Assembly: GCA_002437585.1 (NCBI GenBank)
Contig: DJQM01000064.1
Span: forward strand, 11,372 to 35,371
Direction: 5' to 3'
DNA length: 24,000 nt
Source of the DNA: Clostridiales bacterium UBA6386
GTDB taxonomy: Bacteria; Bacillota; Clostridia; Oscillospirales; Oscillospiraceae
A model generated the notes under the pieces. The model was not told where the DNA came from. It made no database searches and saw only the letters and a program-made list of their open reading frames with translations. The translations under genes and the position numbers were made by a program. Positions 2,605 through 20,281 of this stretch are shown here, one piece after another. Every line of letters begins with the position of its first letter. Within the stretch, counting starts at the first letter, position 1.

Positions 2605-2630
2605 AGTATAATTCCTCCTGAAATGTGATT

Positions 2631-3791: not shown

Positions 3792-3848
3792 AGCAAACCT
3801 CCTTTTCAAATTAGTCAGAAATTATATTATGAATTTGCAACCTACTCC

Positions 3849-3877
3849 ATTATAGCTGCAGCTAAAAGATATTACAA
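3849..3877 (-). promoter_or_regulatory. Candidate sigma-70-type promoter for deoB-udp
   Basis: On the minus strand: TTGTAA (3877-3872), a 17-nt spacer, then a perfect TATAAT (3854-3849). About 55 nt upstream of the deoB RBS, in an AT-rich divergent intergenic region. Confidence 0.5.
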
Positions 3878-3942
3878 TAGCAAAATGCAAATTTAGCATT
3901 ATGCACAAAATATGACCGCTCTATTTATAAATAATGATATAT

Positions 3943-3970
3943 TGACATTTTTATTTTGACGTGTATGATA
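3943..3970 (+). promoter_or_regulatory. Candidate promoter for the YczE-like gene (and possibly the downstream ABC operon)
   Basis: TTGACA (3943-3948), then a TG-extended -10 region, gTGtATGATA (3961-3970). The spacer is 15-16 nt depending on the hexamer chosen. Confidence 0.45.
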
Positions 3971-4013
3971 AAGCTATGGCTAAAACATATTATGAAAAAT
4001 AAGGGAATGCGCT

Positions 4014-4667
4014 GTGAACAATTCTAAAAAAATACTACAACTTTTTGAAAACATCCTATGGATCGAACTTGGATTGGCGATATCCTCCGCAGGAACGGCA
4101 CTTTTTTACGCCGCAGATCTGGGATCCGGGGCTATGGCGACATTCTCCGATGGACTGCACCTGCTGCTGGGTATTTCCTATGGAAATGCCAATACATTAT
4201 CCAACATAGTGTTGTTGATAGTTCTGCTTTTCCTTCAGAGGTCTTACATCAACGTGGGTACCGTTCTTTGCGTATTTACCATCGGACCATGGGTAAATTT
4301 GTTTACGCCGGTTTTTCAGGCTGCCGGCCTGGCACAGGCGAATATGTGCCTTCGCCTGCTGGGGGCAGCGGGTGGTACCATCTGCATGGGGGTCGGCTTG
4401 GGTCTGTATGTATCCGTAGGCTGTGGGCTTGGTGCCATGGAGGGGATCGTCATGTATTGCAGGGAACGGTTTCACATTTCCGTGGGGGTATCCAAGATCA
4501 TTCAGGATGTGACACTGGTGCTCCCGGGAATCCTGCTGGGAGCCCGCTGGGGTGTTGGAACGATGATTGCCATGTTCTGCACGGGGCCGGTGCTTCAGTT
4601 TTCCACAGCTTTTTTTAAGAACCGGGTATTTTCTGCCCTTTGCCGTCCCTGGGTCGAACAGGTGTGA
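4014..4667 (+). CDS. Uncharacterised multi-pass membrane protein, YczE/YitT-like
   Basis: 217 aa. GTG start with AAGGGA (4001-4006) 7 nt upstream. Mostly hydrophobic segments (about 6 helices). Resemblance to COG2364/YczE-type proteins is by eye only. Stop TGA at 4665-4667. Confidence 0.6.
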   Translation: MNNSKKILQLFENILWIELGLAISSAGTALFYAADLGSGAMATFSDGLHLLLGISYGNANTLSNIVLLIVLLFLQRSYINVGTVLCVFTIGPWVNLFTPVFQAAGLAQANMCLRLLGAAGGTICMGVGLGLYVSVGCGLGAMEGIVMYCRERFHISVGVSKIIQDVTLVLPGILLGARWGVGTMIAMFCTGPVLQFSTAFFKNRVFSALCRPWVEQV

Positions 4668-4965
4668 GCGAGATTTTATCCTGCTGAGCCAATACCGGCG
4701 GGTAAAATAAAGGACAACACGCGCAATTGTGTCTGCGAGCCTCAGCCGTCTTGTTACCCCATTTCTTCAGTTTGAAAAACGGGAACTATAGCGCAGCCGT
4801 TGCCGGCGAAAGCTGGCTTGCGGGTGCGGCATACCCCTTGCGGGTACATACAGTACTCCGACCTTTTCCGAACTTTGAACTGGGATAAAAATCCTGGCTG
4901 AGTCTTCTTGCCAAATTGTACGCGGTGTTGCCAGAGAACAAATATCATCAGGAGGAACGTAAAAA

Positions 4966-6147
4966 ATGAAAAGCAAAAAGATCGTTGCGCTGCTTCTGAC
5001 TGCGGTTATGCTGCTCTCCATGGCAGCCTGCGGACAGAAGACAACCACCGCCACCGCCACTGCCGCCGCTTCTGCCGACGGCACGCCTTCCGGGGAGACT
5101 GCCGCGGACGGTATCGTAGAAGCCTTTGGCAAGAAGGCCGGCGATATCGGGGTTGTGCTGATCCTGAACACCAATCTGGGCGACCATGCGATCTGCGACC
5201 TGTCTAACGCCGGCCTGCAGGAGGCTGCTGCGATGTATGGCTTCCGAGCGAAGGTCGTTGAACTTGGCGGCGATGTTACACTGCAAGTGCCCACCATGCA
5301 GGAGTATGCGGAGGATCCTGACTGGGATATCATTGTCTGCGGTACTTCCAACTTGAAAGAGGCCGTTCAGCAGGTCGCGCAGGAGCATCCGGATCAGAAG
5401 TTTATCCTTTACGACGCACAGGACGAGAAGGGCCTGCCCAATGTTTTCTCCATGGATCACTGCCAGAATGAGGGTGCCTACCTTGCCGGCGTGGCGGCCG
5501 CTCTGCTGACCACCAGTGACGCACCCTTGGCCAATGGGGAAAAGACCGTCGGTTTTGTAGGCGGCGGCGAGAACACCGCGCTGGATGACTATCTGATCGG
5601 CTATATTCAGGGTGTCCATTCCGTAGATGAGGACATCAACATTTTGGTTTCCTGGATCGGCGACTTCAAGGATACTGCTAAGGGCAAGGAGCTGGCCGTG
5701 GCACAGGCAGGTCAGGGCGCGGACGTAATCTTCTCCGTTGCTGGTATTGCCGGTTTGGGTACTCTGGCAGGCTGCGCCGAGAGCAATATCTACTCCATCG
5801 GCGTGGACTCCGACCAGTACACGGTTCTGCTGGAGACCGATCCGACCACCGCTGCCAACATCTGCACTTCCATGTATAAGAAGGCGGACGTGACTGTCAG
5901 CACACTGATTGCCAGGGCTCTTGACGGCACTCTGGAATGGGGCAGCTACGCCAAGTGGGGTCTGCAGGACGGCGTGGTCGGTCTGGCTAACGATAATGAC
6001 AATTATCAGAGCATCTTCTCTGAGGAGCAGAAGCGTTATCTGGATGGCGTGCAGGCGGACGCTACTGCCGGAAAGCTGGAGATTCTGTCCGCTATCGGCA
6101 TGGACAACGATCAGCTGCAGCAGATTCTGGCTACCGCAACCAAGTAA
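4966..6147 (+). CDS. BMP/PnrA/Med-family lipoprotein, substrate-binding component of a nucleoside-type ABC importer (NupN-like)
   Basis: 393 aa. Lipoprotein signal peptide with lipobox LSMAA-C (Cys22), followed by a T/A-rich linker. BMP-family motifs: TVGFVGGGEN, GADVIFSVAG, YSIGVDSDQY. AGGAGG at 4950-4955. Confidence 0.88.
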   Translation: MKSKKIVALLLTAVMLLSMAACGQKTTTATATAAASADGTPSGETAADGIVEAFGKKAGDIGVVLILNTNLGDHAICDLSNAGLQEAAAMYGFRAKVVELGGDVTLQVPTMQEYAEDPDWDIIVCGTSNLKEAVQQVAQEHPDQKFILYDAQDEKGLPNVFSMDHCQNEGAYLAGVAAALLTTSDAPLANGEKTVGFVGGGENTALDDYLIGYIQGVHSVDEDINILVSWIGDFKDTAKGKELAVAQAGQGADVIFSVAGIAGLGTLAGCAESNIYSIGVDSDQYTVLLETDPTTAANICTSMYKKADVTVSTLIARALDGTLEWGSYAKWGLQDGVVGLANDNDNYQSIFSEEQKRYLDGVQADATAGKLEILSAIGMDNDQLQQILATATK

Positions 6148-6159
6148 GGATAACATGGA

Positions 6160-6191
6160 GGGGAACAGAACGCGTCCACGTTCTGTTCCCC
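6160..6191 (+). other. Intra-operon stem-loop between the binding-protein and ATPase genes
   Basis: Perfect 13-bp stem GGGGAACAGAACG (6160-6172) / CGTTCTGTTCCCC (6179-6191) with a 6-nt loop. No U-tract follows, so it looks more like an mRNA-stabilising or partial-attenuation hairpin than a full terminator. Confidence 0.5.
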
Positions 6192-6226
6192 CAGGATGCC
6201 GAAAAAGGAAATGCAGGAGGATGAAT

Positions 6227-7792
6227 ATGAAAGAGAATATCCTCGTTATGGAGAACATCCGGAAGGTATATTCGAATGGATTTATCGCGAATGAAAATGT
6301 AAATCTTGCTGTCAACGAGGGTGAGATCCATGCGCTGGTCGGTGAAAACGGTGCCGGAAAAAGTACGCTGATGAAGGTGCTTTTCGGCGTAGAAAAGCTG
6401 GATGAGGGCAGAATCCTCCTGAACGGACAGGAAGTCCATATCGACAACCCCAATGTGGCAATCCAATTGGGGATCGGCATGGTTTATCAGCATTTTATGC
6501 TGGTACCCAGTCTGACGGTAACGGAGAACCTTGTCATTGGCATGGAGCCCAGAAAAGGCGGGATCTTCTACGACCAGTCCGCCGCTGAAAAGCTGGTCAG
6601 AGAGGCGGCACAGAAATACAATTTCAAATTGGATCCGACGGCTAAGATCCAGGATCTTCCTGTCGGCCAGAAGCAGAAGGTCGAGATTTTGAAGGTGCTG
6701 ATCCGGGGGGCAAAAATCATCATTCTGGATGAGCCTACGGCTGTCCTGACGCCTCAGGAAACGAGGGAACTGTTTGCCGAGCTGAAGGGATTGAAGAGCC
6801 AGGGCTATACCGTGATCTTTATCTCTCACAAGCTGAACGAGGTGACAGAGCTATGCGACCGGGTGACGGTCATGCGGGCGGGAAAGACCATTGGTGTCCG
6901 CAATATTGCTGATGTGACCGAGGGAGATATCTCCCGGATGATGGTCGGCCGGGACATTGTATTGAAAATAGACAAAAAACGGGCGGTACCGGGAGAGGAA
7001 GTTCTCTCAGTGCGGCATGTTACCAAATATATTCTGAATACGAAAAAAATACTTGACGACGTGAGCTTCCGTGTGCGCCGGGGGGAAATCCTGGGTGTGG
7101 CCGGTGTGGAAGGAAATGGCCAGAAAGAGATCAGCGAGATCATCACTGGCCTAGATCGGGTATTCGACGGAGAGGTTCGCGCGACGCCGGAACTGGTGGA
7201 TGTACGGGAGCAGACAATACGGCAGCTGCGGGAGAAGGGTGTAGCCCATATTTCCGAGGACCGTATGACCTATGGAATCGTGGGCGACGGCAGCATTGAG
7301 GACAATATCATTGCCGACCGTTATTATAAGCCGTCCATGAAGAAGGGGCTGCTGCTGAACCAGAAAAAGATCGATGCTCTGGCGGATGAACTGATCCAGG
7401 AGTATAAGGTCAAGTGCGACAACCGGACGCAGCCGATCCGGATGCTGTCTGGCGGTAATATGCAGAAGGTGGTCACTGCCCGGGAATTTACTGCGGGTGC
7501 GTCCCTGATCATTGCCAATCAGCCGACCCGAGGCATTGATATCGGGGCCAGTGACTTCATTCGCCGCCGCCTGGTGGAACTGCGGACCCAGGGAGCTGGC
7601 GTACTGCTGATCAGCGCGGACTTGAATGAGGTGCTGGAGATCAGCGACAGTCTGATCGTGATGCACAACGGACGGATCGCCGCGTATTTTCCGGATGCGT
7701 CCGCGGTGGGTGAAGATGAATTGGGCGAGTACATGCTTGGGGTAAAAACAATGAGCGAGGAAGAAAAACGGGAGGTGGCGGATTATGACTAA
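6227..7792 (+). CDS. ABC transporter ATP-binding protein with duplicated ATPase domains (NupO/RbsA-like)
   Basis: Start chosen at ATG 6227 (AGGAGG at 6215-6220, 6-nt spacer). The ORF-track start at 5909 would overlap the BMP gene. Walker A motifs GENGAGKST and GVEGNGQKE, Walker B IIILDEPT, signature LSGGNMQKV. Confidence 0.9.
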   Translation: MKENILVMENIRKVYSNGFIANENVNLAVNEGEIHALVGENGAGKSTLMKVLFGVEKLDEGRILLNGQEVHIDNPNVAIQLGIGMVYQHFMLVPSLTVTENLVIGMEPRKGGIFYDQSAAEKLVREAAQKYNFKLDPTAKIQDLPVGQKQKVEILKVLIRGAKIIILDEPTAVLTPQETRELFAELKGLKSQGYTVIFISHKLNEVTELCDRVTVMRAGKTIGVRNIADVTEGDISRMMVGRDIVLKIDKKRAVPGEEVLSVRHVTKYILNTKKILDDVSFRVRRGEILGVAGVEGNGQKEISEIITGLDRVFDGEVRATPELVDVREQTIRQLREKGVAHISEDRMTYGIVGDGSIEDNIIADRYYKPSMKKGLLLNQKKIDALADELIQEYKVKCDNRTQPIRMLSGGNMQKVVTAREFTAGASLIIANQPTRGIDIGASDFIRRRLVELRTQGAGVLLISADLNEVLEISDSLIVMHNGRIAAYFPDASAVGEDELGEYMLGVKTMSEEEKREVADYD

Positions 7793-8897
7793 GGCAAAGA
7801 AAATCCGGACCGCAAAAGAAATTGAGCAGATCTTCAATGTGCTGCGGGTGATTGTGGCAATTGCCATTGCACTGTTGTTTGCTTTTGCTGTAATCCTGCT
7901 GGTCAGCGACGACCCGTTGGACTCCATCTCCAAATTTGTGGTCGGTCCTATGACAACGACTCGGCGCTTTGGCGAGGTCATCAGCAAAATGGTGCCGCTG
8001 CTGTTCACCGGCGCGGCAGTGTGCTTCATCTTCTCTGCGAACCAAACCAATATGGCGGTGGAAGGCGGCTTTACGCTGGGTGCTCTGGGAGCAACCATTG
8101 CCGCCGTTTACCTGTCCGTGGGAAATGCGGTGGTGGACGTGACGGTGGCGTGCCTTCTGGGCGGTCTGTTTGGGCTGATTGCCTGTGCGATCCCCGCTAT
8201 TATGTATGTCAGATTCAATTCCAAGCCCATTGTCAGCTCGTTGATGATGAACTATGTGTGCATGTATGTGGCCATCGGCCTAATCAATCATCCCATGCGG
8301 GACAACAGTGCAGGATTCAATGCTTCGAAGACCTTTGCCGCTACGGCTCAGCTGCCGAAGCTGCTGAAGGGCACGGACATCCACCTTGGATTGATCATCG
8401 GCCTGGTGGTGATCCTGTTCAGCTACATTTATCTCTACCGTGCACAGAACGGATACGAGATTCGGGTGGTAGGCAAAAACAGCGATTTTGCCACCTACTG
8501 TGGCATGCCGGTCAACAGCATCCTGATGAAGTCTCAGCTGATCGGCGGCTTCCTGGCTGGCCTGGGCGGCGCGGTAGAGGTGCTGGGTCTGTATTCCCGG
8601 TTCCAGTATTCTGGCAATACGGGTCTGGGCTTCGACGGCATCATGGTTGGCATTATGGCGGCGTATAACCCGAAGCTGGTTCCGTTGGCGGCGTTTTTCT
8701 ATGCCTATGTGAAGGAGGGCGCGGCGATTCTGGCCCGTTCTACGGACATTCCGGTAGAGCTGGTGAGCATTATTCAGGCGATCATTATCATGCTGGTGGT
8801 AGCCGAAAGATTCCTGTATAAGCAGAAGCACAAGCTTATGGTTCGGGCGGCGGAAAAGCAGCTGGAGCTGCAGCAGACTCAGAAGGAGGAGGGTTAA
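7785..8897 (+). CDS. ABC transporter permease (BMP-family system, NupP-like)
   Basis: 370 aa multi-pass membrane protein. The ATG overlaps the ATPase stop by 8 nt. RBS GGAGGTGG at 7771-7778. Confidence 0.85.
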   Translation: MTKAKKIRTAKEIEQIFNVLRVIVAIAIALLFAFAVILLVSDDPLDSISKFVVGPMTTTRRFGEVISKMVPLLFTGAAVCFIFSANQTNMAVEGGFTLGALGATIAAVYLSVGNAVVDVTVACLLGGLFGLIACAIPAIMYVRFNSKPIVSSLMMNYVCMYVAIGLINHPMRDNSAGFNASKTFAATAQLPKLLKGTDIHLGLIIGLVVILFSYIYLYRAQNGYEIRVVGKNSDFATYCGMPVNSILMKSQLIGGFLAGLGGAVEVLGLYSRFQYSGNTGLGFDGIMVGIMAAYNPKLVPLAAFFYAYVKEGAAILARSTDIPVELVSIIQAIIIMLVVAERFLYKQKHKLMVRAAEKQLELQQTQKEEG

Positions 8898-8899
8898 GG

Positions 8900-9835
8900 A
8901 TGAATGCGGATTTTATCGCAAGTTTTCTCTATTCTGTGATTCGGATCACCACGCCTCTGCTCTATGGCGCGCTGGGAGCACTGATCTGCAAGCAGGGCGG
9001 TGTGCTGCACATTGCCTTTGAGGCCTGTATGCTGTTCGCTGCATTTTTTGGTGTGGTGGCCAGTGCGTTGACGCAGAGCGTTTTCCTTGGTCTGATCGCC
9101 GGTATGGCGGGAGGAGTACTGGTGATGCTCCTGTTCGGCTATTTCACCCTGCAGCTGAACGCAAACCTGGTTTTGACGGGAATCGCCCTCAACACGCTGG
9201 CATCCGGCGGAACGGTGTTCCTGATGTATCTGCTCTGCGGCGAAAAGGGAACCAGCAATGCTCTGCCCAGCCTGGTATTTCCCACTGTGAATATTCCGGT
9301 GGTTAAGGACATCCCTTTCTTAGGTACAGTGCTGTCCGGGCATAACATCCTGACGTATGTGGCGTTTATTATGCCCGTGTTTGTGTATCTGCTGATTTTC
9401 AAGACGCCGCTGGGACTACGTATCCGGTCGGTTGGTGAAAATGAGAATGCTGCCGCAAGCGTAGGCGTCAATGTAGCCAAGACCAAGTATATCACCCTGA
9501 TCATCGGCGGCGCGGTCACATCTCTCGGCGGAATGTTTATGTCCATGGGCTATCTGTCCTGGTTTGCCCGGGATATGATCGCCGGCCGGGGCTTTATGGC
9601 CATTGCAGCCCAGAATCTGGGAAACGCGGCGGTGGTGCCCACGTTCATCACATCTGTCCTGTTCGGATTGGCCAACGCTTTGGCGGTTATGCTCCAGACA
9701 CTGAATCTTCCTGCGGAGATATTCCAGGCAATGCCCTATGTGGTCACGCTGATTGGCCTGGCTGCTTATTCCAGCTCTCAGCGGAAGGGACAGAAGCAAG
9801 AAAAAAAGACTGGAAACAGGCAAAATAAGGGATGA
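8900..9835 (+). CDS. ABC transporter permease (BMP-family system, NupQ-like)
   Basis: 311 aa multi-pass membrane protein. Starts 2 nt after the upstream stop; GAAGGAGGAGGG lies upstream. Confidence 0.85.
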   Translation: MNADFIASFLYSVIRITTPLLYGALGALICKQGGVLHIAFEACMLFAAFFGVVASALTQSVFLGLIAGMAGGVLVMLLFGYFTLQLNANLVLTGIALNTLASGGTVFLMYLLCGEKGTSNALPSLVFPTVNIPVVKDIPFLGTVLSGHNILTYVAFIMPVFVYLLIFKTPLGLRIRSVGENENAAASVGVNVAKTKYITLIIGGAVTSLGGMFMSMGYLSWFARDMIAGRGFMAIAAQNLGNAAVVPTFITSVLFGLANALAVMLQTLNLPAEIFQAMPYVVTLIGLAAYSSSQRKGQKQEKKTGNRQNKG

Positions 9836-9859
9836 AAAAATCTTTTTTTCAGGTATAAT
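9832..9859 (+). promoter_or_regulatory. Possible internal promoter for the gntR-GRE operon
   Basis: Perfect TATAAT at 9854-9859, 25 nt upstream of the gntR ATG, but only a weak -35 (ATGAAA at 9832-9837). Read-through from the ABC operon is equally possible. Confidence 0.3.
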
Positions 9860-9883
9860 GAAAGCTGAAAGAGAGGGAGACCT

Positions 9884-10576
9884 ATGTCTTATTCATCGAA
9901 TGCATCACAGCGTGTCTTAAACTACATTACGGACAATATCAGAACCGGGCATTGGGCGGCGGGCAGCAAGATCGAAACGGAGGATACAATCAGCGAAAAG
10001 CTGGGCGTAAGCCGGATCGCAGTCAGACAGGCCATTGAAAAGCTCAGTACGCTGGCGGTTCTGACGAAGGTACAGGGATCCGGAACTTATGTAAACGGCT
10101 TTGAAGAGTGCACACTGGGAGGGATGGTGTATTACCCGCCTACCCTGCGGTCACTGCGCACAGTGCTGGAATTCCGGAGGATGTTCGATTCCTGCAACGC
10201 GGAGCTTTTTATTCAGAATGCGACGCGGCAGCAGAAGGAGGAACTGTACCAGAATTTCCGGGACATGGTTCAGACAAAGGATGATCGGGAACGCTTTGAA
10301 ATTTATGACAACGCCTTCCATGAAATGATTGCCAGAGGAACCAACAATACCTTGATCTGCCAGATATCCGATACGCTGACAGAGCTTTTGATCCATCATC
10401 AGGCACTGCAGTACGATTTGGTCGGGCCGGAGCAGGCCATTAAATGGCATGGGCGTATCATCGAGGCCATCCAGGATGGGGATGGTGAGCTGGCGCGGCT
10501 ATATACCAGGGTACATATTGATAATGCCATCAAAAGATTGGCATCGGCTGACAGCAAAACGGAGGAAACACCATGA
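9884..10576 (+). CDS. GntR-family transcriptional regulator, FadR/FCD subfamily
   Basis: 230 aa. N-terminal winged HTH (EDTISEKLGVSRIAVRQAIEKLSTLAVLTKVQGSGTYV). C-terminal FCD-type helices with a conserved His pattern (YDNAFHEMI, WHGRIIEAIQDGDGELA). Confidence 0.88.
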   Translation: MSYSSNASQRVLNYITDNIRTGHWAAGSKIETEDTISEKLGVSRIAVRQAIEKLSTLAVLTKVQGSGTYVNGFEECTLGGMVYYPPTLRSLRTVLEFRRMFDSCNAELFIQNATRQQKEELYQNFRDMVQTKDDRERFEIYDNAFHEMIARGTNNTLICQISDTLTELLIHHQALQYDLVGPEQAIKWHGRIIEAIQDGDGELARLYTRVHIDNAIKRLASADSKTEETP

Positions 10577-12072
10577 GCAGTGCTGTGTATGATATTATTA
10601 CTTCCGATCATCTGAATTATCATCAAAAGCTGAACGCTTTGTGCCATGAGGCGGAGAACACACTGGAGGTACTGCCGCTACCGGCACATTTCCACAAATA
10701 CTTCGATCGCGGAGCGATCTGTGATATGAACGAGGGAAACGCTCCCTATCGCCCGCGCTATGTGATGGTGGATTTTGAGCGGTTTGTGAAGCAGGGCAGT
10801 CGATTTCTGAAGCTGGATCCTCCCCGGAATCTGGATGAGCTGCTGTGGGCACTGGAGATCCTGTACTGCTACATTCCGTCGATTACCACAAAGCCGGTGT
10901 ATCTGGGCAACCTGGACAAGCTGATCGATCCGTTTTTGGACGGGGTGACCGATGAAGAGGCCGTCCCCAAGCTGGAACGCTTTTTGGGCTATATCAACCG
11001 GGTCATCGCCAACGCTTACAGCCACGCGAACATCGGGCCGGAGGCGACCAGAGCCGGTTGGCTGCTGCTGATGATGGAGGAAAAGCTTCAGCTGGATACA
11101 CCGAACTTGACTCTGAAATATGACGCAGACATTACGCCGGATGACTTTGCGGAAGCGGCGATCCGCTGTTCGCTGAAGTGCGGCAATCCCGCGATCTGCA
11201 ATCACAAAGCCCATAAGGATACCTACAGCTTTGACTATGGGATTTCTTCCTGCTATAATATTCTGCCGCTGCGAGGCGGGGCATATACGCTATCCCGACT
11301 GGTGCTGCCAAGGCTTGCAAAAATGGCCGACGGCGTGGACATGTTTCTGGAGGAGTTGCTGCCGGATGCCTGTAAGACGCTGGGGGAGTACATGAATGCC
11401 CGGGTCAGCTTTCTGGTGGAGAAATCCAATTTCTTCCAGCGGGATTTTCTGGCGGAAGAGGGTCTGATTGAGCGGGAGCGCTTTGTGGGGATGTACGGCG
11501 TGGCGGGTCTGTGCGATTGCGTCGATTTGCTTCTGGCAGATCGGGGCCTGAAATATGGCAGAGATCCGGAGGCGGATGATCTGGCGGATCGGATCATGAG
11601 GATCATTCAGAACTTCGTGGCTCGCTTCGAAGCTAACTATTCGGAGATTGGCCATGGACATTTCCTGCTGCACGCCCAGGCAGGGCTGGCCACGGATGTG
11701 GGAGTGACTTCGGGCGTGCGGATCACGGTGGGAGACGAGCCGGAAAACCTGCTGAACCACCTGCGCCACAGTGCGCGGTTCCATCGATTCTTTCCCACGG
11801 GCTGCAGTGACATTTTTCCCTTTGACGCCACAGCGGAGCGGAATCCCGGTGGTTTGCTGGATATTGTCAAGGGTGCGTTCTCTATCGGGGACAAATACTG
11901 CGCGTTTTACGGTGCGGATGGAGATATGGTGCGGATCACCGGCTATCTCGTCAAGCGCAGCGACCTGCAAAAGTATGAGAACGGAGACATTGCTCTTCAG
12001 GACAATGTGATCAACGGCAGCAGCAACTACAGGCTGAACCGGCTGAAGGACAGGAAGGTTCGCCATGTCTGA
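10573..12072 (+). CDS. yjjI: YjjI-family short glycyl-radical enzyme (substrate unknown)
   Basis: 499 aa. C-terminal glycyl-radical fingerprint DMVRITGYLV, with Gly457 encoded by ggc at 11941-11943. Size and overall sequence fit the E. coli YjjI type rather than the 750-850 aa PFL-type GREs. The ATGA overlap with the gntR stop (10573-10576) and the dedicated activase immediately downstream support the call. Confidence 0.8.
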   Translation: MSSAVYDIITSDHLNYHQKLNALCHEAENTLEVLPLPAHFHKYFDRGAICDMNEGNAPYRPRYVMVDFERFVKQGSRFLKLDPPRNLDELLWALEILYCYIPSITTKPVYLGNLDKLIDPFLDGVTDEEAVPKLERFLGYINRVIANAYSHANIGPEATRAGWLLLMMEEKLQLDTPNLTLKYDADITPDDFAEAAIRCSLKCGNPAICNHKAHKDTYSFDYGISSCYNILPLRGGAYTLSRLVLPRLAKMADGVDMFLEELLPDACKTLGEYMNARVSFLVEKSNFFQRDFLAEEGLIERERFVGMYGVAGLCDCVDLLLADRGLKYGRDPEADDLADRIMRIIQNFVARFEANYSEIGHGHFLLHAQAGLATDVGVTSGVRITVGDEPENLLNHLRHSARFHRFFPTGCSDIFPFDATAERNPGGLLDIVKGAFSIGDKYCAFYGADGDMVRITGYLVKRSDLQKYENGDIALQDNVINGSSNYRLNRLKDRKVRHV

Positions 12073-12913
12073 GCAGTTGACCGCGCCGATCAACAGGATA
12101 CTGCCCTATAGTGTTGTAGACGGACCGGGCAACCGGGTGGCGATATTCTTTCAGCGGTGCAATATCCACTGCGCCTATTGCCACAATCCGGAAACGCAGA
12201 ATCTGTGCCAGAACTGCGGCACCTGCGTGGAAGAATGCCCCGGAAAGGCACTGACCATGGACAACGGCAGGGTTCGCTGGGCGGTGGGGAAATGCCTGGA
12301 GTGTGACCGGTGCATCCGGATCTGCCCGAATCATGCTTCCCCCAAAGTGACGGAGATGACACCAGAGCAGGTATTTGAGAAGGTTTGCGAGAGCCTTCCT
12401 TTTATCCGTGGAATCACCGTATCCGGTGGGGAGTGCAGCCTGTATCCGGATTTTCTCGAGAAATTGTTCACTTTGACAAGAAAAAAGCATCTGACGGCAC
12501 TGATGGATTGCAACGGAACCATAGATTTGAGCTGGTATTCCGGGCTTATGGCACTGTGCGACGGTGTTATGCTGGACGTGAAAAGCTGGGATCCGGAGGC
12601 CTTCTTCACACTGACCGGAGGAGACGGCAAAAATGTAAAAAAGAATCTCCTCTGGCTGTCCCAACAGGGAAAGCTGGAGGAGGTTCGCATCGTCTACGCA
12701 CCCGGCTGCGTGGACGCGGAGCACTGCATTCTTGGCATCGCGGAGACACTGGGACCGAAACAGACGGAAAAGGTGCTGCTGAAGCTGATCCGTTTTCGTC
12801 CCTTTGGGGTAAAAGGACCGCTTTCCGATTGGCCGCCGCCCTCCATGGAAGCGATGGCCGGACTGGAGGCTCTTGCGACGCGGGTCGGATTTCGGCGGAT
12901 CCTGATTCTGTAG
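12065..12913 (+). CDS. yjjW: YjjW-family glycyl-radical enzyme activase (radical SAM)
   Basis: 282 aa. Radical-SAM CNIHCAYC (C32/C36/C39, nt 12158-12181). Two ferredoxin-type cluster motifs, CQNCGTCVEECP and CLECDRCIRICP. SAM-binding motif VSGGEC. The ATGTCTGA overlap with the yjjI stop (12065-12072) indicates translational coupling. Confidence 0.85.
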   Translation: MSEQLTAPINRILPYSVVDGPGNRVAIFFQRCNIHCAYCHNPETQNLCQNCGTCVEECPGKALTMDNGRVRWAVGKCLECDRCIRICPNHASPKVTEMTPEQVFEKVCESLPFIRGITVSGGECSLYPDFLEKLFTLTRKKHLTALMDCNGTIDLSWYSGLMALCDGVMLDVKSWDPEAFFTLTGGDGKNVKKNLLWLSQQGKLEEVRIVYAPGCVDAEHCILGIAETLGPKQTEKVLLKLIRFRPFGVKGPLSDWPPPSMEAMAGLEALATRVGFRRILIL

Positions 12914-12941
12914 CGGTCAGGCGCATGAAAGGAAAACGATC

Positions 12942-13736
12942 ATGATACTTTCTCACTGCAATTTTTTCTCTAAGACCCTTTTGAATCATGTGGATGTGGA
13001 TGTGCTGATCCCATCCGTTCCGGAAAATGACTGCATTGGCATGACACTGGAAGAAATTTACGCACCGGTCAAGCCATATCCCGTCCTGTACCTCCTTCAC
13101 GGTGCGCTGGACGACCATACCGCGTGGCTGCGGCACACGAATATCGAAGCTCTGGCGGAGAAGGCCGGTGTCGCGGTGGTCATGCCATCGGGGCAGAACG
13201 GATTCTATGTGAACGCACGTTACGGACAGAATTATTTCGACTTCATCGCCAAGGAGCTGCCGGCTTTTATCGAGCGGATATTCCCGGTCAGCACCTGCCG
13301 GGAGGAACGATTTATTGCCGGCCCGTCCATGGGCGGCTACGGCGCGACCCATACGGCACTGTCCTGCCCGGAGTGCTACAGAGCGTTCGCGGATCTGTCC
13401 GGCGCGGTGGATCCGGTGACGCTGGAACCGAGAATGCAAGCCATGGGCTTTGGCTTTTTCCGATATGATTTGATTTTTGACGGCACCCGGAATATGCGGC
13501 CTGATGATGATTTGTACGCACTGGCGGCCTCGTTAAAGTCGGCGGAGATCAAGCCGGAAGCGTATGTGTATTGCGGACTGGAGGATACTGCCAACTATGA
13601 TATGAACTGCCGGTTGCGGGATACGTTGGTGGAAAACAATTTTTCCGTTTCCTTCCGGGATGGGCATGGGCGGCATGACTGGGTCTATTGGAACAGCTGC
13701 ATCGCGGATTTTCTTGCGCATATTGCGAAGAAATAG
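12942..13736 (+). CDS. Alpha/beta-hydrolase esterase (putative esterase/esterase D/EstA-like family)
   Basis: 264 aa. YPVLYLLHG oxyanion region and nucleophile elbow GPSMGG. C-terminal HDW region typical of the esterase-D-like family. Starts 29 nt after yjjW with an AAAGGAAAA RBS. Confidence 0.8.
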   Translation: MILSHCNFFSKTLLNHVDVDVLIPSVPENDCIGMTLEEIYAPVKPYPVLYLLHGALDDHTAWLRHTNIEALAEKAGVAVVMPSGQNGFYVNARYGQNYFDFIAKELPAFIERIFPVSTCREERFIAGPSMGGYGATHTALSCPECYRAFADLSGAVDPVTLEPRMQAMGFGFFRYDLIFDGTRNMRPDDDLYALAASLKSAEIKPEAYVYCGLEDTANYDMNCRLRDTLVENNFSVSFRDGHGRHDWVYWNSCIADFLAHIAKK

Positions 13737-13801
13737 GGCAGCACCGCACAATTCGGCCAGAAATCTCAGCCGGGATTTTTGCTGAATTGTGCGGTGCTGC
13801 C
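13737..13801. terminator. Long extended hairpin between the convergent esterase and ugd genes (possible bidirectional terminator)
   Basis: Perfect 18-bp inverted repeat GGCAGCACCGCACAATTC (13737-13754) / GAATTGTGCGGTGCTGCC (13784-13801). The 29-nt interior folds further: AGAAATC (13759-13765) pairs with GATTTTT (13774-13780). Starts directly after the esterase stop. There is no clean U-tract. Confidence 0.45.
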
Positions 13802-13832
13802 TTAATTATCGTGTGTCATCGAATAACGCGTA

Positions 13833-13908: not shown

Positions 13909-15375
13909 TCAGTCCCGCTTGAAGATATCCCGGGTATAGACCTTCTCCTTCACGTCGTCCAGGCAGCTGTCGTACCGGTTGGCCAGGATACAGCCGGAGA
14001 GCCGCTTGAACTTGGCTAGGTCGTTGACCACCCGGGAGCCGAAGAAGGTCTCCCCGTCCGGAAGGGTGGGCTCGTAGATGATGACGGTCGCCCCCTTGGC
14101 CTTGATCCGCTTCATGACCCCCTGGATGGCGGACTGGCGGAAATTGTCAGAATTTGCCTTCATGGTCAGCCGGTACACGCCTACCACGGTCTCCTTCTCC
14201 TTTTTGGCACTCCAGGCATCGTTGGCTTCGTACCCGCCGGCAATCTCCAGCACCTGTTCGGCGATGAAATCCTTCCGGGTGCGGTTTGACTCCACAATGG
14301 CACTCATCATGTTCTGGGGCACATTTTCAAAGTTGGCAAGCAATTGCTTGGTGTCCTTGGGCAGGCAGTAGCCGCCGTAGCCGAAGGAGGGGTTATTATA
14401 GTGGCTGCCGATACGAGGATCCAGGCATACGCCGTCGATGATGTCCTTGGTACACAGCCCCTTGGCCAGGGCGTAGGTGTCCAGCTCGTTGAAATAGCTC
14501 ACCCGCAGAGCAAGATAGGTGTTGGCAAACAGCTTCACCGCCTCGGCCTCGGTAAAGCCCATGAACAGGGTGGGGATATTCTCCTTGATGGCTCCCTGCT
14601 GCAAAAGAGAGGCGAAGACTTCCGCCTCTTTCCGGGTGCCCGCATCGCAGGAGACAATGATCCGGCTGGGGTACAGATTATCGTACAGAGCCTTGGATTC
14701 CCGGAGAAACTCCGGGCTGAACAGGATCCGGTCGGTGTGGTACTTCTTCCGGACGGAGACGGTGTAGCCCACGGGAATGGTGGACTTGATGACCATAACG
14801 GCCTTGGGATTCACTTTGCGTACCAGCTCAATGACCGCTTCCACCGCGGAGGTATCGAAGTAATTTTTCTTGCTGTCGTAGTTGGTGGGGGCGGCGATGA
14901 CCACGAAGTCCGCGTCCCGGTAGGCACTCTCGCCGTCCAGGGTGGCGGTCAGGTCAAGCTCCTTTTCCGCCAGGTACTTTTCGATGTACTCGTCCTGAAT
15001 GGGAGACTTGCGCCGGTTGATGAGTTCCACCTTCTCCGGGAGAATGTCCACGGCGGTGACGTGGTTGTGCTGGGCGAGCAGGGTGGCGATAGACAGACCC
15101 ACATAGCCCGTTCCGGCCACGGCCACGCGGTATCGCCTTGCGGGGGCGGCCTTTGGCCTGGGCTCTTCCTGATAGAGATCCGGTATTTCAAATTCCAGCA
15201 CCTGCGCCAGAGCCTCCAGCTGATCGAGGGAGGGCTTGTAGGTTTCGTTTTCCAGTCTGCCCAGCATGGAGCGGTTGATGCCGGTGAGCTCCGACAGCTG
15301 AGCCTGGGTCAGGTGCTTTTCCTTGCGCCGGGCGCGGACGGTTTCCGCCAGAAGAGCGGGGGAAAGCTTTTTCAT
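13909..15375 (-). CDS. ugd: Fusion protein: N-terminal XRE/Cro-C1 HTH domain + UDP-glucose 6-dehydrogenase
   Basis: 488 aa. Residues ~1-70 form an HTH ([39 protein letters not shown]), followed by the linker [12 protein letters not shown]. The rest is a full Ugd resembling streptococcal HasB/Cap3A: [63 protein letters not shown]. There is no Met at the enzyme-module start (YRVAVAG), so the enzyme cannot be read as a separate gene. Confidence 0.88.
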
Positions 15376-15683: not shown

Positions 15684-15764
15684 AACACAGTATGAGACGG
15701 TAGGCATGGTGTGCCCTTTGAAAAATTACACATCATTCCGAAAAACGACGGAGAGTATAGACAT

Positions 15765-17048
15765 ATGTGGGAAAACGAAACCAAGAAAGCCTGGATACGC
15801 AATGTTGTGATTTTCGTGGTACTGGTGGTTGCGGCAGCGGCGTTACTGGTGACCATGCTCCAGGTGAAAAAGCAGATCGACGCCGAGGATGAGCTGCTGG
15901 AATCCAAGAGCTCCAGCCAGCAGCAGGAGCTGAGCGAGGTGCGCCAGGAAAATCTGGACGTGATCCAGCAGGGCTATGACACAGACATGCAGACCGCTCA
16001 GCAATATCTGCCCGGCATCGTCTGCTGGGGTGACAGCCTGACCGCCGGTTCCTCCGGCAATGTGTCCTACCCGGTGATTCTGCAGAAGTACATCAATATT
16101 TATCTGTGCGACGTGTACGACTTCCGTTCCACGGTGACCAATCCCCAGGATTACGATTCCCGGGTGGACTGGGATGACTATACCCTGACCGTTCCCGTGG
16201 TGAATATGGGCGCGGGCATGGAGGACAGTGCCACGGTGCTGGGCCGCAGCGGCGTAAGGCCTTACATTGTGTCCAAGGCCTTTACCATCCCGGCAACCTG
16301 TGAGGCGGTGAGCCTGAGCATCAGCTCTGTGGACAAGAAGCAGGTCAATCCCCTGACCGCCGGAAACGCCGGACTGAACCCGGTGACCATCTGCGGTGTT
16401 CAGGGCACCCTGAGCCTGGTTTCCCAGTCCTACGGCCAGTACACCTATGACTTCACCCGGCTGGAGCCGGGCAGCGAGGTGGAGGTGGAGGCCGGCACGC
16501 AGGTCATCGCTGCTTGCACCGACGAATACCGGAACTACATCCATGTGGTCTGGCTGGGCACCTACGGGGAGTATACCAGTGCTTCTCAGCTGGTGGAGGA
16601 CACCAAGACCCTGCTTGCCCGGCAGAACGTCAACCCGGATCGCTATCTGGTGCTGGGCCCCTGCACCCTGCGGGGCTCCTGGACCAATGCGGACAGCACC
16701 ACCATGGACACCCTGGATTCCGCCATGCTCCAGGCCTTCGGCAGTCACTATATCAACGTGCGCAAGTACCTGATGGTGGACGGCGCGACGGACGCCAGGC
16801 TTTCTCTCAGCCAGGAGGACAAGCAGCTGATCCAGCAGGGCAAGGTTCCTTCCATCTTCCGCAGCAATGCCACCGGCGCGGACTTGAACGGCGCGGCTTA
16901 CCGGCTCATCGGCAAGCTGGTCTACGATCGGATGGATCGGCTAGGCTACTTTGAGGAGGTTCGGCAGGAGCTGGGTCTGGAGAAATCCACCCAGGAGCTG
17001 CTGAAGGAGGATCCGGATTACTTTACCAAGCTCATCAACGCCAACTGA
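15765..17048 (+). CDS. Membrane-anchored SGNH/GDSL-family hydrolase (EPS-locus associated)
   Basis: GDSL block I, GIVCWGDSLTAGSSG. Single N-terminal TM helix (VVIFVVLVVAAAALLVTML) followed by a Q/E-rich linker. ATG 15765 is preferred (GGAGAG at 15750-15755, 9-nt spacer). The ORF-track GTG at 15711 is an alternative start. Confidence 0.75.
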   Translation: MWENETKKAWIRNVVIFVVLVVAAAALLVTMLQVKKQIDAEDELLESKSSSQQQELSEVRQENLDVIQQGYDTDMQTAQQYLPGIVCWGDSLTAGSSGNVSYPVILQKYINIYLCDVYDFRSTVTNPQDYDSRVDWDDYTLTVPVVNMGAGMEDSATVLGRSGVRPYIVSKAFTIPATCEAVSLSISSVDKKQVNPLTAGNAGLNPVTICGVQGTLSLVSQSYGQYTYDFTRLEPGSEVEVEAGTQVIAACTDEYRNYIHVVWLGTYGEYTSASQLVEDTKTLLARQNVNPDRYLVLGPCTLRGSWTNADSTTMDTLDSAMLQAFGSHYINVRKYLMVDGATDARLSLSQEDKQLIQQGKVPSIFRSNATGADLNGAAYRLIGKLVYDRMDRLGYFEEVRQELGLEKSTQELLKEDPDYFTKLINAN

Positions 17049-17074: not shown

Positions 17075-17881
17075 ATGCAGTATACGGAAGAAGATACCAT
17101 TGACCTTCTGGAGCTTGCCAAGGCGATCTGGAAGAACATCCTGATCATCGCGCTGGTCGCCGTGCTGCTTGGCTCCGCGGCCTTCGGCGTTTCCGCCTTC
17201 CTGATCGAGCCTACCTATCAGGCCATGGCCTCCATGTACGTCAACAACAGCTCCTTCAGCCTGGGGCAGACCAGCTTCTCCATTTCCACCTCCGAGCTGT
17301 CCGCCTCCAATTCTCTGGTCAGCGTGTACATCTACATTCTGGAATCCAGAACCACCATGGAGGACGTGATCAAGGAGGCAGGGCTGAGCTACACTCCCAC
17401 GGAGCTGGGAGAAATGGTGGAGGCCGAGGGCGTGAGCAACACCGGCGCCTTTGAGATCACCGTCACCAGCACCGACCCTGCCGAGGCGGAGCTGATCGCC
17501 AATACGATTGCCAAGCTACTGCCTGACCGGATCGCGGAGATCGTGGACGGCAGCTCCGTGCGCATCGTGGACTACGCCATCATTCCCGCCCACCGTTCCG
17601 GGCCGAGTCTTGTGAAGAACACCGCCATGGGCATTCTGGCAGGCGGCTTCCTGGCGGCGGCAGTGGTGGTGGTGAACTTCCTGTTCAACGATAAGTCCAG
17701 GGAAATGATCCGGTGCGCCGACGACCTGCGGGAGATGTACCCGGATGTGCAGGTTCTGAGCATGATCCCGGATATGCGCCAGTCCGAGAAGAAGAACGGC
17801 TACTATTCCGACTATTACTACGCGCCTGCGAAGAGCAAGCAGAAGGGAGGCGCAGACAATGGCAGAAAGCAAGGTGCTTAA
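17075..17881 (+). CDS. cpsC: Wzz/CpsC/CapA-type chain-length determinant, transmembrane modulator of the BY-kinase
   Basis: 268 aa. Wzz-type N-terminus (IDLLELAKAIWKNILIIALVAVLLGS...EPTYQAMASMYV). Second TM helix near the C-terminus (GILAGGFLAAAVVVVNFLF). Cytoplasmic tail with the Tyr cluster GYYSDYYYAP. Confidence 0.85.
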   Translation: MQYTEEDTIDLLELAKAIWKNILIIALVAVLLGSAAFGVSAFLIEPTYQAMASMYVNNSSFSLGQTSFSISTSELSASNSLVSVYIYILESRTTMEDVIKEAGLSYTPTELGEMVEAEGVSNTGAFEITVTSTDPAEAELIANTIAKLLPDRIAEIVDGSSVRIVDYAIIPAHRSGPSLVKNTAMGILAGGFLAAAVVVVNFLFNDKSREMIRCADDLREMYPDVQVLSMIPDMRQSEKKNGYYSDYYYAPAKSKQKGGADNGRKQGA

Positions 17882-18626
17882 CACCCCCTCCGGGGCAAAG
17901 AAGGATCCCCGCCGTACCGGCAAGGTCTGCGAATTTTTGACCTATTCCGGCCGGGAGGCCTTCAAGCGTCTGCGTACCAATGTCCTGATCGGCCTGGGAG
18001 AGAAAACCGATAAGAAGGGTCAGATCATCGGCATCACCAGTGCCCAGCCCTCCGAGGGCAAGAGCACCGTGTCCGTGAATCTGGCCTACAGCCTGGCGGA
18101 GCTGGGCAAAACCGTTCTGCTCATTGACAGCGACATGCGCCGTCCCGCCATCCACGACATTGTGGGTGCCAGTCTGGCTCCGGGCCTTTCGGAGGTGCTG
18201 GCTGGGGGGACTGCCCTGAATGATACGGTGGTTCGCTATAACAGCTCCGCGGATAAGACCTTTTTCGACCTGATCCCCGGCGGCACGATCCCCGAAGACC
18301 CGGTGGAAAAGCTGAACTCCGGCCGGTATCAGAAGCTGCTGGAGGCCGCCGCCAACGCCTTTGACTATGTGGTGGTGGATCTGCCCCCGGTAAACGCGGT
18401 GGTGGACGCGGTGAACGTATCCAAGTATGTGGACGGGATGCTGGTGGTTCTCCGGGAGGGTCATTGCCCCCGGTATGTGCTGGAGGAGTGTATGGAGCAG
18501 CTGCACTACGCCAATGCCCATGTGCTGGGCTTCGTGCTGAACGGCTGTGTCGAGGGCGCGTCCAAGCACTATCAGTACAGCAGCCGCTATGGCTACGGCT
18601 ACCGGTACGAGCAGAAACAAAAATAA
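17859..18626 (+). CDS. cpsD: CpsD/CapB-type protein-tyrosine kinase (BY-kinase catalytic subunit)
   Basis: 255 aa. Walker A ITSAQPSEGKST, Walker A' LLIDSDMRRP, Walker B VVVDLPP. C-terminal Tyr cluster HYQYSSRYGYGYRYE. GGGAGG RBS at 17845-17850. Overlaps cpsC by 23 nt. Confidence 0.9.
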   Translation: MAESKVLNTPSGAKKDPRRTGKVCEFLTYSGREAFKRLRTNVLIGLGEKTDKKGQIIGITSAQPSEGKSTVSVNLAYSLAELGKTVLLIDSDMRRPAIHDIVGASLAPGLSEVLAGGTALNDTVVRYNSSADKTFFDLIPGGTIPEDPVEKLNSGRYQKLLEAAANAFDYVVVDLPPVNAVVDAVNVSKYVDGMLVVLREGHCPRYVLEECMEQLHYANAHVLGFVLNGCVEGASKHYQYSSRYGYGYRYEQKQK

Positions 18627-19564: not shown

Positions 19565-20281
19565 ATGATCGATTTTCACAGCCATGTGCTGCCCCGGATG
19601 GATGACGGCCCCAGGAGCCTCCGGGAAAGCCTGGAAATGCTGAACCAGTGCTTTCAGCAGGGGGTGGACGCGGTGGTGAGCACCTCTCATTTTTACGCCT
19701 ATCAGGACGATCCCAAGGCTTTTCTCCTGCGCCGGGGACGGCGGCTGCAGGCGCTTCGGGAGGCGATGCTTTGCAGCACAGAGGTTTACCCCCGGATCAT
19801 CCCCGGGGCGGAGGTGCTGTATTTCCCCGGCATCAGCCAGGCTCAGGAGGTGGCGGAGCTGTCCATCGCCGGACGGGTCATTCTGATCGAGCCGCCTATG
19901 GCTCCCTGGTCGGACGATATGCTCGATGAGATCGTCAGCCTGGGGGAGAATTTCAGACGAAAGCCGGTCATTGCCCATGTGGATCGATACATGAAAATGC
20001 TGGGCGACAACGGTCTCATTGACCGGGTGCTGGAGCGGGAGCTGCTGGTGCAGGTCAACGGCAGCTATTTCCTGGATAAAAAGCGGGAAAAGGCCGCCAT
20101 CCGGAATCTGAAGAAAGGAAAAATCCATCTGATTGGCTCGGATTGCCACAACCTATTCGATCGTGCCCCCAATCTGGGTCTGGTGCGCCGGGTGGTTCGG
20201 GCGGCGGGGGCTGAGGCGGAATTTCGAGTTCTCCAGGAAAACGCCGCCGGGCTTCTGGAGCTGGAAGGAGAGTTGGTATGA
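19565..20281 (+). CDS. cpsB: CpsB/YwqE-type PHP-family protein-tyrosine phosphatase
   Basis: 238 aa. MIDFHSHVLPRMDDGPRS, VVSTSH, PVIAHVDRY and LIGSDCHN match the pneumococcal CpsB metal-binding motifs. GGAAAGGAGG RBS. Confidence 0.9.
   Translation: MIDFHSHVLPRMDDGPRSLRESLEMLNQCFQQGVDAVVSTSHFYAYQDDPKAFLLRRGRRLQALREAMLCSTEVYPRIIPGAEVLYFPGISQAQEVAELSIAGRVILIEPPMAPWSDDMLDEIVSLGENFRRKPVIAHVDRYMKMLGDNGLIDRVLERELLVQVNGSYFLDKKREKAAIRNLKKGKIHLIGSDCHNLFDRAPNLGLVRRVVRAAGAEAEFRVLQENAAGLLELEGELV

Follow-up and report, generated by a model that had tools for sequence, protein, structure and literature searches.

YjjI and YjjW, a glycyl radical enzyme pair without an assigned reaction, in a predicted nucleoside locus of an uncultured Oscillospirales bacterium

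The proteins YjjI and YjjW of Escherichia coli (b4380 and b4379) constitute one of the last glycyl radical systems of this bacterium without an assigned reaction. Their homologues were analyzed in a 24,000-nt stretch of DNA (the window, to whose positions all coordinates refer unless another locus is named) from Clostridiales bacterium UBA6386 (contig DJQM01000064.1, positions 11,372 to 35,371), an uncultured gut Oscillospirales-type Firmicute. In the window, yjjI, encoding a short glycyl radical enzyme (GRE), and yjjW, encoding its radical S-adenosylmethionine (SAM) activase, are surrounded by genes of predicted nucleoside uptake and catabolism. The present analysis adds to earlier knowledge of the family a quantified nucleoside linkage in multiple lineages, the assignment of a fold resembling ribonucleotide reductase (RNR), and a Cys-loop motif unlike those of the characterized GRE classes.

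Among described GREs, the class III (anaerobic) RNR NrdD is defined by a C-terminal Cys4 zinc site and N-terminal allosteric elements (ATP-cone and specificity site), and its activase NrdG is not known to have a ferredoxin insert. The finger loop of NrdD reads MGCR or MCCR, with the methionine conserved at 97% or 83%, and it is paired with a beta-A cysteine that serves the reductive half-reaction and is conserved in 92.6% of sequences (10.1101/2022.04.23.489257). The GRE eliminases, isomerases and decarboxylases carry a CxE motif in the Cys loop (PMC13450708). YbiW/PflD (ring opening of 1,5-anhydro-hexitol-6-phosphate), CutC, the glycerol and propanediol dehydratases, and HypD are single-Cys redox-neutral enzymes acting on hydroxylated carbon skeletons. 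A superfamily review of June 2026 groups the GREs into two InterPro families, anaerobic RNR and pyruvate formate-lyase (PFL)-like, and seven classes; YjjI is absent from it, as is any nucleoside-acting GRE (PMC13450708).

No published reaction for YjjI, YjjW or DUF3029 was found in the full text searchable to mid-2026, a body of literature that has most subscription journals outside its coverage, and to this extent the preliminary description of the window was right to state that none has been assigned. The three names occur there only in omics tables and in one computational guess. E. coli yjjI is among the operons directly activated by FNR (PMC3688515), and in Yersinia intermedia deprived of oxygen yjjI was induced 4.3-fold and yjjW 2.1-fold (PMC3792023), which argues for an anaerobic role of YjjI. 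In a biclustering paper of 2011, a role in "nitrogen metabolism" was proposed on the grounds that, in E. coli and Salmonella, expression followed that of nar genes and FNR/NarL motifs were shared (PMC3228777). The Haemophilus influenzae orthologue HI0521 was labelled as PFL-type in older annotations, as these are cited in the same paper (PMC3228777).

Identity, conservation and fold of the pair

The window YjjI scored 592.5 bits against TIGR04040 (cut-off 498.3; E = 5e-178), with residues 5-497 aligned to positions 3-497 of the 497-position profile, and 636 bits against PF11230, "Glycyl radical enzyme YjjI-like" (formerly DUF3029). YjjW scored 361.8 bits against TIGR04041 (cut-off 250.2; E = 2e-108) and was also matched by PF04055 and the Fer4 families. 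Since both scores exceed the curated cut-offs, the GRE and its activase are not chance open reading frames (ORFs). The preliminary description, made from the letters of the sequence, had called them a YjjI-type short GRE with a dedicated YjjW-type activase and had named both TIGRFAM models; the identification stands and the numbers were correct. The ORFs, overlaps and motifs that it listed were likewise all present, the motifs being (i) MVRITGY in YjjI, with Gly457 as the radical glycine, (ii) CNIHCAYC at residues 32-39 of YjjW, and (iii) two ferredoxin-type CxxCxxCxxxC(P) motifs in the latter, the first spanning residues 48-58 and the second residues 77-87. The motifs and profile matches indicate that YjjI and YjjW are almost certainly an active GRE/activase pair.

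Four co-directional ORFs, encoding a GntR-type regulator, the GRE, the activase and an esterase, form a compact unit (Table 1). The stop codon of gntR and the start codon of yjjI overlap in the ATGA at 10573-10576, the start of yjjW and the stop of yjjI overlap by 8 nt in ATGTCTGA (12065-12072), and 28 nt separate yjjW from the esterase gene, equivalent to the 29 nt reported before. A start/stop overlap of 1-8 nt between yjjI and yjjW was also seen in most of the 77 loci in which the two genes adjoin. The regulator matched PF00392 with 49.2 bits (gathering score 27) and the FCD family PF07729 with 67.8 bits (gathering score 24.3), and by its predicted domains it is a member of the FadR (FCD) subfamily of GntR proteins, with an N-terminal winged helix-turn-helix and a C-terminal effector domain. 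These matches, together with the ATGA overlap, confirmed the earlier view that a GntR regulator is translationally chained to the GRE.

Conservation was assessed in an alignment of 98 full-length YjjI sequences (81 from the one-genome-per-species loci described below, the window and E. coli, plus 17 cluster representatives with 37-46% identity, obtained by searching 1.84 billion of these exhaustively). Among the homologues, which extend down to 37% identity, no more than 23 positions are invariant. S226-C227-x-N229 and R454-x-x-G457 were unchanged in all 98 sequences, and Cys227 is the sole invariant cysteine. Across the family the Cys finger loop reads [S/A/V]-S-C-[Y/F]-N and the radical-glycine loop R-[IV]-[TS]-G-[YF]. 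Eight invariant polar residues (D115, H151, N178, R242, E296, H367, Q369 and R383) lie at strand ends, an arrangement that in the structural model would fit a hydroxyl-rich, possibly anionic substrate.

The family is compact: 446 representatives were found at E < 1e-3, of which ~20 are full-length clusters at 50% identity. Gut anaerobes carry it widely, with more than 1,700 matches at 90% clustering. A protein identical to that of the window was indexed in 87 blocks of the assembly collection, in which the contigs displayed are ENA metagenome assemblies, and its nearest genomic relatives, at 76-83% identity, come from uncultured Clostridiales, Pygmaiobacter, Faecousia and Avoscillospira. The pair had been put forward as the best candidate in the window for an undescribed system. 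This applies to its chemistry alone, as the family itself is already named in Pfam, NCBIfam and genome annotations; the window pair is a typical member of this database-named orphan family, and nothing in this instance is exceptional.

The E. coli proteins are homologous to those of the window from end to end (39% identity, both GREs of ~500 aa). The invariant S-C-[YF]-N and R-[IV]-[TS]-G-[YF] loops, an overlapping downstream activase with two ferredoxin-type motifs, and neighbours for nucleoside catabolism are common to both. The two systems differ in that (i) a GntR/FCD regulator in the window stands against FNR control in E. coli, (ii) a Bmp-type ATP-binding cassette (ABC) importer, Udp, DeoB and an esterase stand against a divergent deoCABD operon, and (iii) the window comes from an uncultured gut host.

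An AlphaFold2 model of YjjI was built from a 32-sequence alignment (predicted local distance difference test score 90.1; predicted template modelling (TM) score 0.91). In this model Cys227 and Gly457 are each located at the tip of a beta-hairpin, Cys227 between strands 222-225 and 229-232. When the model was compared with the PDB using Foldseek, class III RNRs from T4, Prevotella copri, Streptococcus thermophilus and Thermotoga maritima made up 31 of the 32 top matches (E ~1e-15, query TM 0.60-0.75, target TM up to 0.66). The PFL-like enzymes ranked later, beginning with E. coli PflD at rank 33 and including YbiW, HypD, propanediol dehydratase, PFL and CutC (E = 1e-12 to 1e-11), with a much lower target coverage. 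This ranking indicates that YjjI is a GRE barrel of RNR size. Like the class III RNRs (T4 1h78, P. copri 8p2s, T. maritima 4coj), it has Cys and Gly finger loops on a ten-stranded-barrel-type core of about their size, and its context is likewise related to nucleosides.

The likeness does not extend to several defining features of NrdD. The Cys loop of YjjI is SSCYN instead of MGCR or MCCR, a second conserved cysteine, the Cys4 zinc site, the ATP-cone and the specificity site are all missing, no conserved cysteine occurs within residues 400-499, a search for an ATP-cone gave no match, and the YjjW activase carries a ferredoxin insert. The GRE isomerases and eliminases differ from YjjI in another way, being PFL-like proteins of ~800 aa with CxE, whereas YjjI has ~500 aa and C-Y-N. 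As judged from its sequence, the Cys loop of YjjI thus matches no characterized GRE class. In the profile searches, YjjI remained below threshold with PF13597 NRDD (19.3 bits; gathering score 26.2) and with PF02901, a PFL-like family (21.2 bits; gathering score 24.3), and PF01228 gave no match. Sequence searches of the PDB with YjjI alone and with the 32-sequence profile returned nothing significant, so that a residue-level mapping onto NrdD is impossible by that route.

Two ferredoxin-type motifs are not a constant feature of YjjW. In 17 of 78 YjjW sequences, from Bacteroidales and Tissierellia (loci L042, L047, L054, L058, L059, L061, L067, L074, L076, L077 and L079-L084), a protein of ~239 aa retains CX3CX2C and has neither CxxCxxCxxxC motif. 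The auxiliary-cluster insert is therefore dispensable within the family.

Nucleoside genes around yjjI

The gene neighbourhoods of yjjI were compared in 82 loci: 80 from a one-genome-per-species collection, the window, and E. coli. All ORFs were extracted and clustered by all-versus-all BLAST, and the top clusters were named with Pfam and NCBIfam. The genes counted as nucleoside-linked were those of importers (Bmp-ABC, energy-coupling factor (ECF), NupG and NupC types), uridine phosphorylase, cytidine deaminase, and DeoA, DeoB and DeoC. Fifty loci had flanks of 7 kb or more on both sides, and in 40 of these at least one such gene was present.

YjjW adjoins YjjI in 77 of the 82 loci, and a Crp/Fnr-family regulator is encoded directly upstream of yjjI in 45. 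Components of the Bmp-ABC importer were found in 38-40 loci and a Udp-like phosphorylase in 33, followed by YczE (21), cytidine deaminase (Cdd; 19), GntR (15), esterase (12), DeoB (11), DeoC (9), a DeoA-type pyrimidine nucleoside phosphorylase (7), an ECF transporter (7) and the NupG symporter (5). The gntR gene lies directly 5' of yjjI, or of a Crp-YjjI pair, in its 15 loci, and the place of the esterase within the cluster varies.

The order of these genes depends on the lineage. It is Udp (reversed), YczE, Bmp-ABC, GntR, YjjI, YjjW, esterase in Oscillospirales; LacI, ECF, Udp, DeoB (reversed), Crp, YjjI, YjjW in Christensenellaceae-like Bacillota; YjjI, YjjW, Bmp-ABC, Crp, Udp, Udp, in some cases DeoC, and Cdd in Lachnospiraceae; Crp, YjjI, YjjW, Bmp-ABC, Cdd, DeoA in Tissierellia; and Crp, optionally Cdd, YjjI, YjjW, NupG and optionally DeoA in Bacillaceae. 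Among Enterobacterales, E. coli and Edwardsiella have deoCABD in divergent orientation to yjjI, and in two genomes (Edwardsiella and another) yjjI adjoins a NupC transporter gene. Nucleoside genes are thus linked to yjjI in no fewer than six distinct arrangements, and such variation in gene order implies that the linkage is not simply inherited synteny. The interchange of importers at one position (Bmp-ABC, NupG, NupC, ECF) and the recurrence of pyrimidine enzymes (Udp, Cdd, Pdp/DeoA) argue for a functional link. It should be noted that Bmp-ABC, NupG and NupC are three unrelated families of nucleoside importers, to which an ECF transporter of unassigned specificity is added.

The window itself follows the Oscillospirales order. 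Its Udp is closest among solved structures to the uridine phosphorylase 3qpb (E = 4e-76), and one representative of the Udp-like neighbour cluster exceeded the TIGR01718 cut-off with 319 bits. DeoB was called as a gene of 386 aa on identical contigs. The Bmp protein is closest to TmpC of Treponema pallidum (2fqw, E = 5.5e-32), and the complete Bmp-ABC importer (4966-9835) ends 48 nt 5' of gntR. For the esterase, the closest solved structures are the esterase 4rgy (E = 2e-45) and the tributyrin esterase 2uz0. The radical enzyme module had been regarded as self-contained; its predicted neighbours show instead that YjjI-YjjW forms the distal portion of a conserved locus for nucleoside uptake and catabolism, which spans 1837-13736.

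Several further observations were made during the census. The divergent pair of Udp and YczE stands beside the transporter in 21 of the 82 loci. Hungatella hathewayi DSM 13479 (L051/L052) and H. effluvii (L053/L055) each carry two YjjI-YjjW loci with differing sets of partners, one type containing Bmp-ABC, Crp, Udp, Udp, DeoC and Cdd, and the other Crp, Bmp-ABC and Cdd (with DeoA in H. effluvii), which suggests paralogues with different nucleoside specificities. The Crp/Fnr-family regulator 5' of yjjI has ~240 aa (e.g., 17909-18637 of L062) and no obvious FNR-type N-terminal Cys cluster; its top NCBIfam match is E. coli YeiL, at 30.6 bits and far below the cut-off. To judge from these features it may sense a ligand and not oxygen. 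Two candidate associations were discarded: a class II aldolase gene, which in Bacteroidales looks like lineage synteny among Paludibacteraceae and not a specific partner, and a microcompartment, as shell-protein genes are absent from the conserved neighbours. In a Tissierellia metagenome-assembled genome, an incidental array of 17 clustered regularly interspaced short palindromic repeats (Rfam CRISPR-DR2; 11101-12194 of L058) lies 3' of the YjjI nucleoside cluster.

Proposed function and its alternatives

On balance, we slightly favour the view that YjjI is an RNR-like radical enzyme, that its reaction with a pyrimidine nucleoside or the pentose of one is redox-neutral, and that it provides the radical step of an anaerobic nucleoside-utilization locus. 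The part of this proposal that concerns the substrate, namely a nucleoside or a pentose or base derived from one, can be put forward with reasonable confidence. With nucleoside genes as its neighbours, YjjI would most likely act on the ribosyl portion of a pyrimidine nucleoside or on the resulting pentose phosphate. If the substrate is of this type, the chemistry is somewhat more likely to be redox-neutral than reductive, because there is one conserved cysteine, and both the reductive apparatus of RNR and the CxE base of the eliminases are absent.

The predicted reaction would proceed as follows. By analogy with the families to which the two proteins belong, YjjW would bind SAM on the [4Fe-4S] cluster of its CX3CX2C motif, with the two ferredoxin-type clusters relaying electrons, and the resulting 5'-deoxyadenosyl radical would take a hydrogen atom from Gly457 of YjjI. 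The glycyl radical would then convert Cys227, on the finger loop facing it, into a thiyl radical by oxidation, a geometry suggested by the two hairpins of the model and the NrdD fold match. The substrate from which the thiyl radical abstracts a hydrogen atom could be a pyrimidine nucleoside (at its ribosyl moiety) that has been imported through the adjacent Bmp-type ABC transporter, or, alternatively, the pentose phosphate released from the nucleoside by Udp and DeoB. A redox-neutral elimination or rearrangement, and not a reduction, would follow, the hydrogen atom would be returned, and the product would enter central metabolism. Control of the gntR-yjjI-yjjW-esterase unit may lie with the GntR/FCD protein, which would respond to a small-molecule ligand. 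The products of YbiW/PflD go to aldolases, which may have a parallel in the DeoC or class II aldolase genes that accompany yjjI in some loci.

Several observations weigh against this proposal. Ordinary nucleosides are already handled by phosphorolysis, and it is not apparent why a cell should need a radical step as well. The loci of Bacteroidales and Proteus consist mostly of the bare two-gene unit, with nucleoside genes absent nearby. No riboswitch that would name a ligand was detected with Rfam at the gathering threshold in the window and five loci, nor in an E-value scan of 3700-10000. The Foldseek margin of NrdD over the PFL-like enzymes is modest (E = 1e-15 versus 1e-12), and the query TM-scores overlap. 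Finally, alignment of the YjjI profile with E. coli NrdD by hhalign gave a probability of 2%, co-linear around the Cys loop and too weak to rely on, so that statements on missing NrdD residues rest mainly on the absent second conserved cysteine.

The same fold and the same neighbours could also belong to a minimal RNR-like reductase that uses formate to convert free ribonucleosides or ribose phosphates to their 2'-deoxy forms. Its products would feed DeoA or Udp, then DeoB and DeoC (giving acetaldehyde and glyceraldehyde-3-phosphate), as an electron sink, or would serve salvage for DNA synthesis. That class III RNR is the closest fold, that PF13597 NRDD is matched weakly by YjjI and by precomputed annotation in many homologues, and that DeoC is adjacent in E. 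coli, Edwardsiella and nine of the 82 loci would all agree with such an activity. We nevertheless consider it rather unlikely, since the finger loop has neither the initial methionine nor the second conserved cysteine of NrdD, the C-terminal Cys4 zinc site and the ATP-cone are missing, and DeoC is linked in only ~11% of the loci. The older annotation of HI0521 would make YjjI a PFL-type formate-lyase or keto-acid lyase, to which the weak PF02901 match and the PFL-like structures retrieved at E = 1e-11 to 1e-12 lend some colour. However, PFL exceeds the enzyme in length by ~260 residues, genes linked to CoA or to the handling of formate are not among the conserved neighbours of yjjI, and the single conserved cysteine in place of a Cys-Cys pair, together with the score below the gathering threshold, led us to rule out this activity, which is hardly credible.

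A role in anaerobic nitrogen metabolism, for example the release of nitrogen from a pyrimidine base, would agree with the co-expression with nar genes and the shared FNR/NarL-like motifs (PMC3228777) and with the frequency of cytidine deaminase among the neighbours. Common FNR control explains the co-expression, though, and nitrogen-assimilation genes are not conserved beside YjjI in the 82 loci; this explanation, which rests on FNR co-regulation, was rejected as the primary one and seems very improbable. A low but real probability attaches to a substrate that has nothing to do with nucleosides. In that case the genes would be neighbours because they share anaerobic or carbon-source regulation, or because a Bmp or ECF transporter carries another ligand; the bare loci of Bacteroidales and Proteus speak for this reading. 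The specificity of the Bmp family is not uniform, its components here weakly match the NCBIfam "putative B6" transporter models, and the S component of the ECF transporter is of unassigned specificity. Against this stands the recurrence of three nucleoside-importer families, the ECF transporter and five catabolic enzymes in differently ordered clusters of two phyla; by a rough estimate, such a gene may be expected in ~5-10% of random 20-kb windows, compared with the 80% observed.

A bolder form of the proposal can be offered only tentatively, at less than even confidence. YjjI would represent a third division of the GREs, outside the anaerobic RNR and PFL-like InterPro families, in which a stripped-down RNR-type barrel with an S-C-[YF]-N loop performs redox-neutral elimination or ring opening on free pyrimidine nucleosides or their pentose moiety. 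Gut Firmicutes, Bacteroidales and Enterobacterales, E. coli among them, would then possess a new branch of anaerobic nucleoside catabolism. Redox-neutral action of YjjI on nucleosides would in any event be a new reaction class for glycyl radical enzymology, an oxygen-independent route for the use of nucleoside carbon or nitrogen in the gut, and an example of RNR-type chemistry repurposed. If the substrate were unrelated to nucleosides, the window pair would be a correctly identified but ordinary member of an orphan family that is already catalogued. Membership in nucleoside operons and an RNR-like fold without its reducing apparatus narrow the search for the substrate to a short panel of purchasable compounds.

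Transcription signals and other genes of the window

The coordinates of the features are collected in Table 1.

Table 1. Predicted genes and sequence elements in the 24,000-nt window
Feature	Position (nt)	Strand	Description
Udp, uridine-phosphorylase-like	1837-2604	-	PF01048 120 bits; TIGR01718 260.6 bits, just below the cut-off of 280
DeoB phosphopentomutase	2631-3791	-	NF003766 493.6 bits (cut-off 256); TIGR01696 448.6 bits (cut-off 341)
YczE/YitT-like membrane protein	4014-4667	+	divergent from Udp; NF052291 YczE 78 bits, below cut-off; PF02588 and PF19700 recorded
Bmp/PnrA-type ABC substrate-binding lipoprotein	4966-6147	+	PF02608 158.7 bits; 38 of 82 loci
ABC ATPase, two ABC domains	6227-7792	+	two PF00005; sugar/nucleoside-type double ATPase; 40 of 82 loci
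Two ABC permeases	7785-8897 and 8900-9835	+	PF02653 in both; 39 of 82 loci
Promoter-like site	9832-9859	+	ATGAAA-16-TATAAT; gap ahead of gntR
Perfect palindrome	9833-9851		TGAAAAAA-TCT-TTTTTTCA, N3 spacer
GntR/FCD regulator, gntR	9884-10576	+	230 aa; stop overlaps yjjI start
YjjI-family GRE	10573-12072	+	499 aa; Cys227 codon TGC 11251-11253; Gly457 codon GGC 11941-11943
Sigma-70-like match	11231-11259	+	TTGACT-17-TATAAT, extended TG, 11/12; inside yjjI
YjjW-family radical-SAM activase	12065-12913	+	282 aa; CX3CX2C and two ferredoxin-type motifs
Esterase-D/tributyrin-esterase-type serine hydrolase	12942-13736	+	264 aa; GPSMGG; PF00756 71.6 bits
Long inverted repeat	13731-13807	none	arms of 32 nt with 84% complementarity; lies where the esterase and UDP-glucose dehydrogenase genes converge
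HTH_3-dehydrogenase fusion	13909-15375	-	488 aa
ORF without Pfam match	15711-17048	+	445 aa; between dehydrogenase fusion and Wzz
Wzz	17075-17881		capsule/exopolysaccharide locus
Tyrosine-kinase-like ATPase	17859-18626		capsule/exopolysaccharide locus
CpsB	19565-20281		capsule/exopolysaccharide locus
LytR_cpsA_psr	20278-21264		capsule/exopolysaccharide locus

The short gap ahead of gntR contains the promoter-like site and, overlapping it, the perfect palindrome, which could be an operator or merely AT-rich promoter architecture. A similar A6-N-T6 element, AAAAAATTGATTTTTT, was observed ahead of gntR in locus L015. A conserved GntR operator was considered and discarded: the palindrome is not kept across the 15 GntR-bearing loci, in most of which only a TATAAT-like -10 box recurs in this gap. 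The inverted repeat downstream of the esterase gene probably ends the transcription unit as a terminator. Inside yjjI, over the codons of the Cys loop, there is a near-consensus sigma-70-like match, which is probably due to chance.

Downstream of the nucleoside locus, the gene calls on all four related contigs include the 445-aa ORF. The 488-aa ORF next to it encodes an XRE-type HTH_3 domain (residues 12-64) fused to a complete UDP-glucose/GDP-mannose dehydrogenase with its N-terminal, central and C-terminal domains. This fusion, which borders the capsule/exopolysaccharide locus, was called as one gene on four independent contigs.

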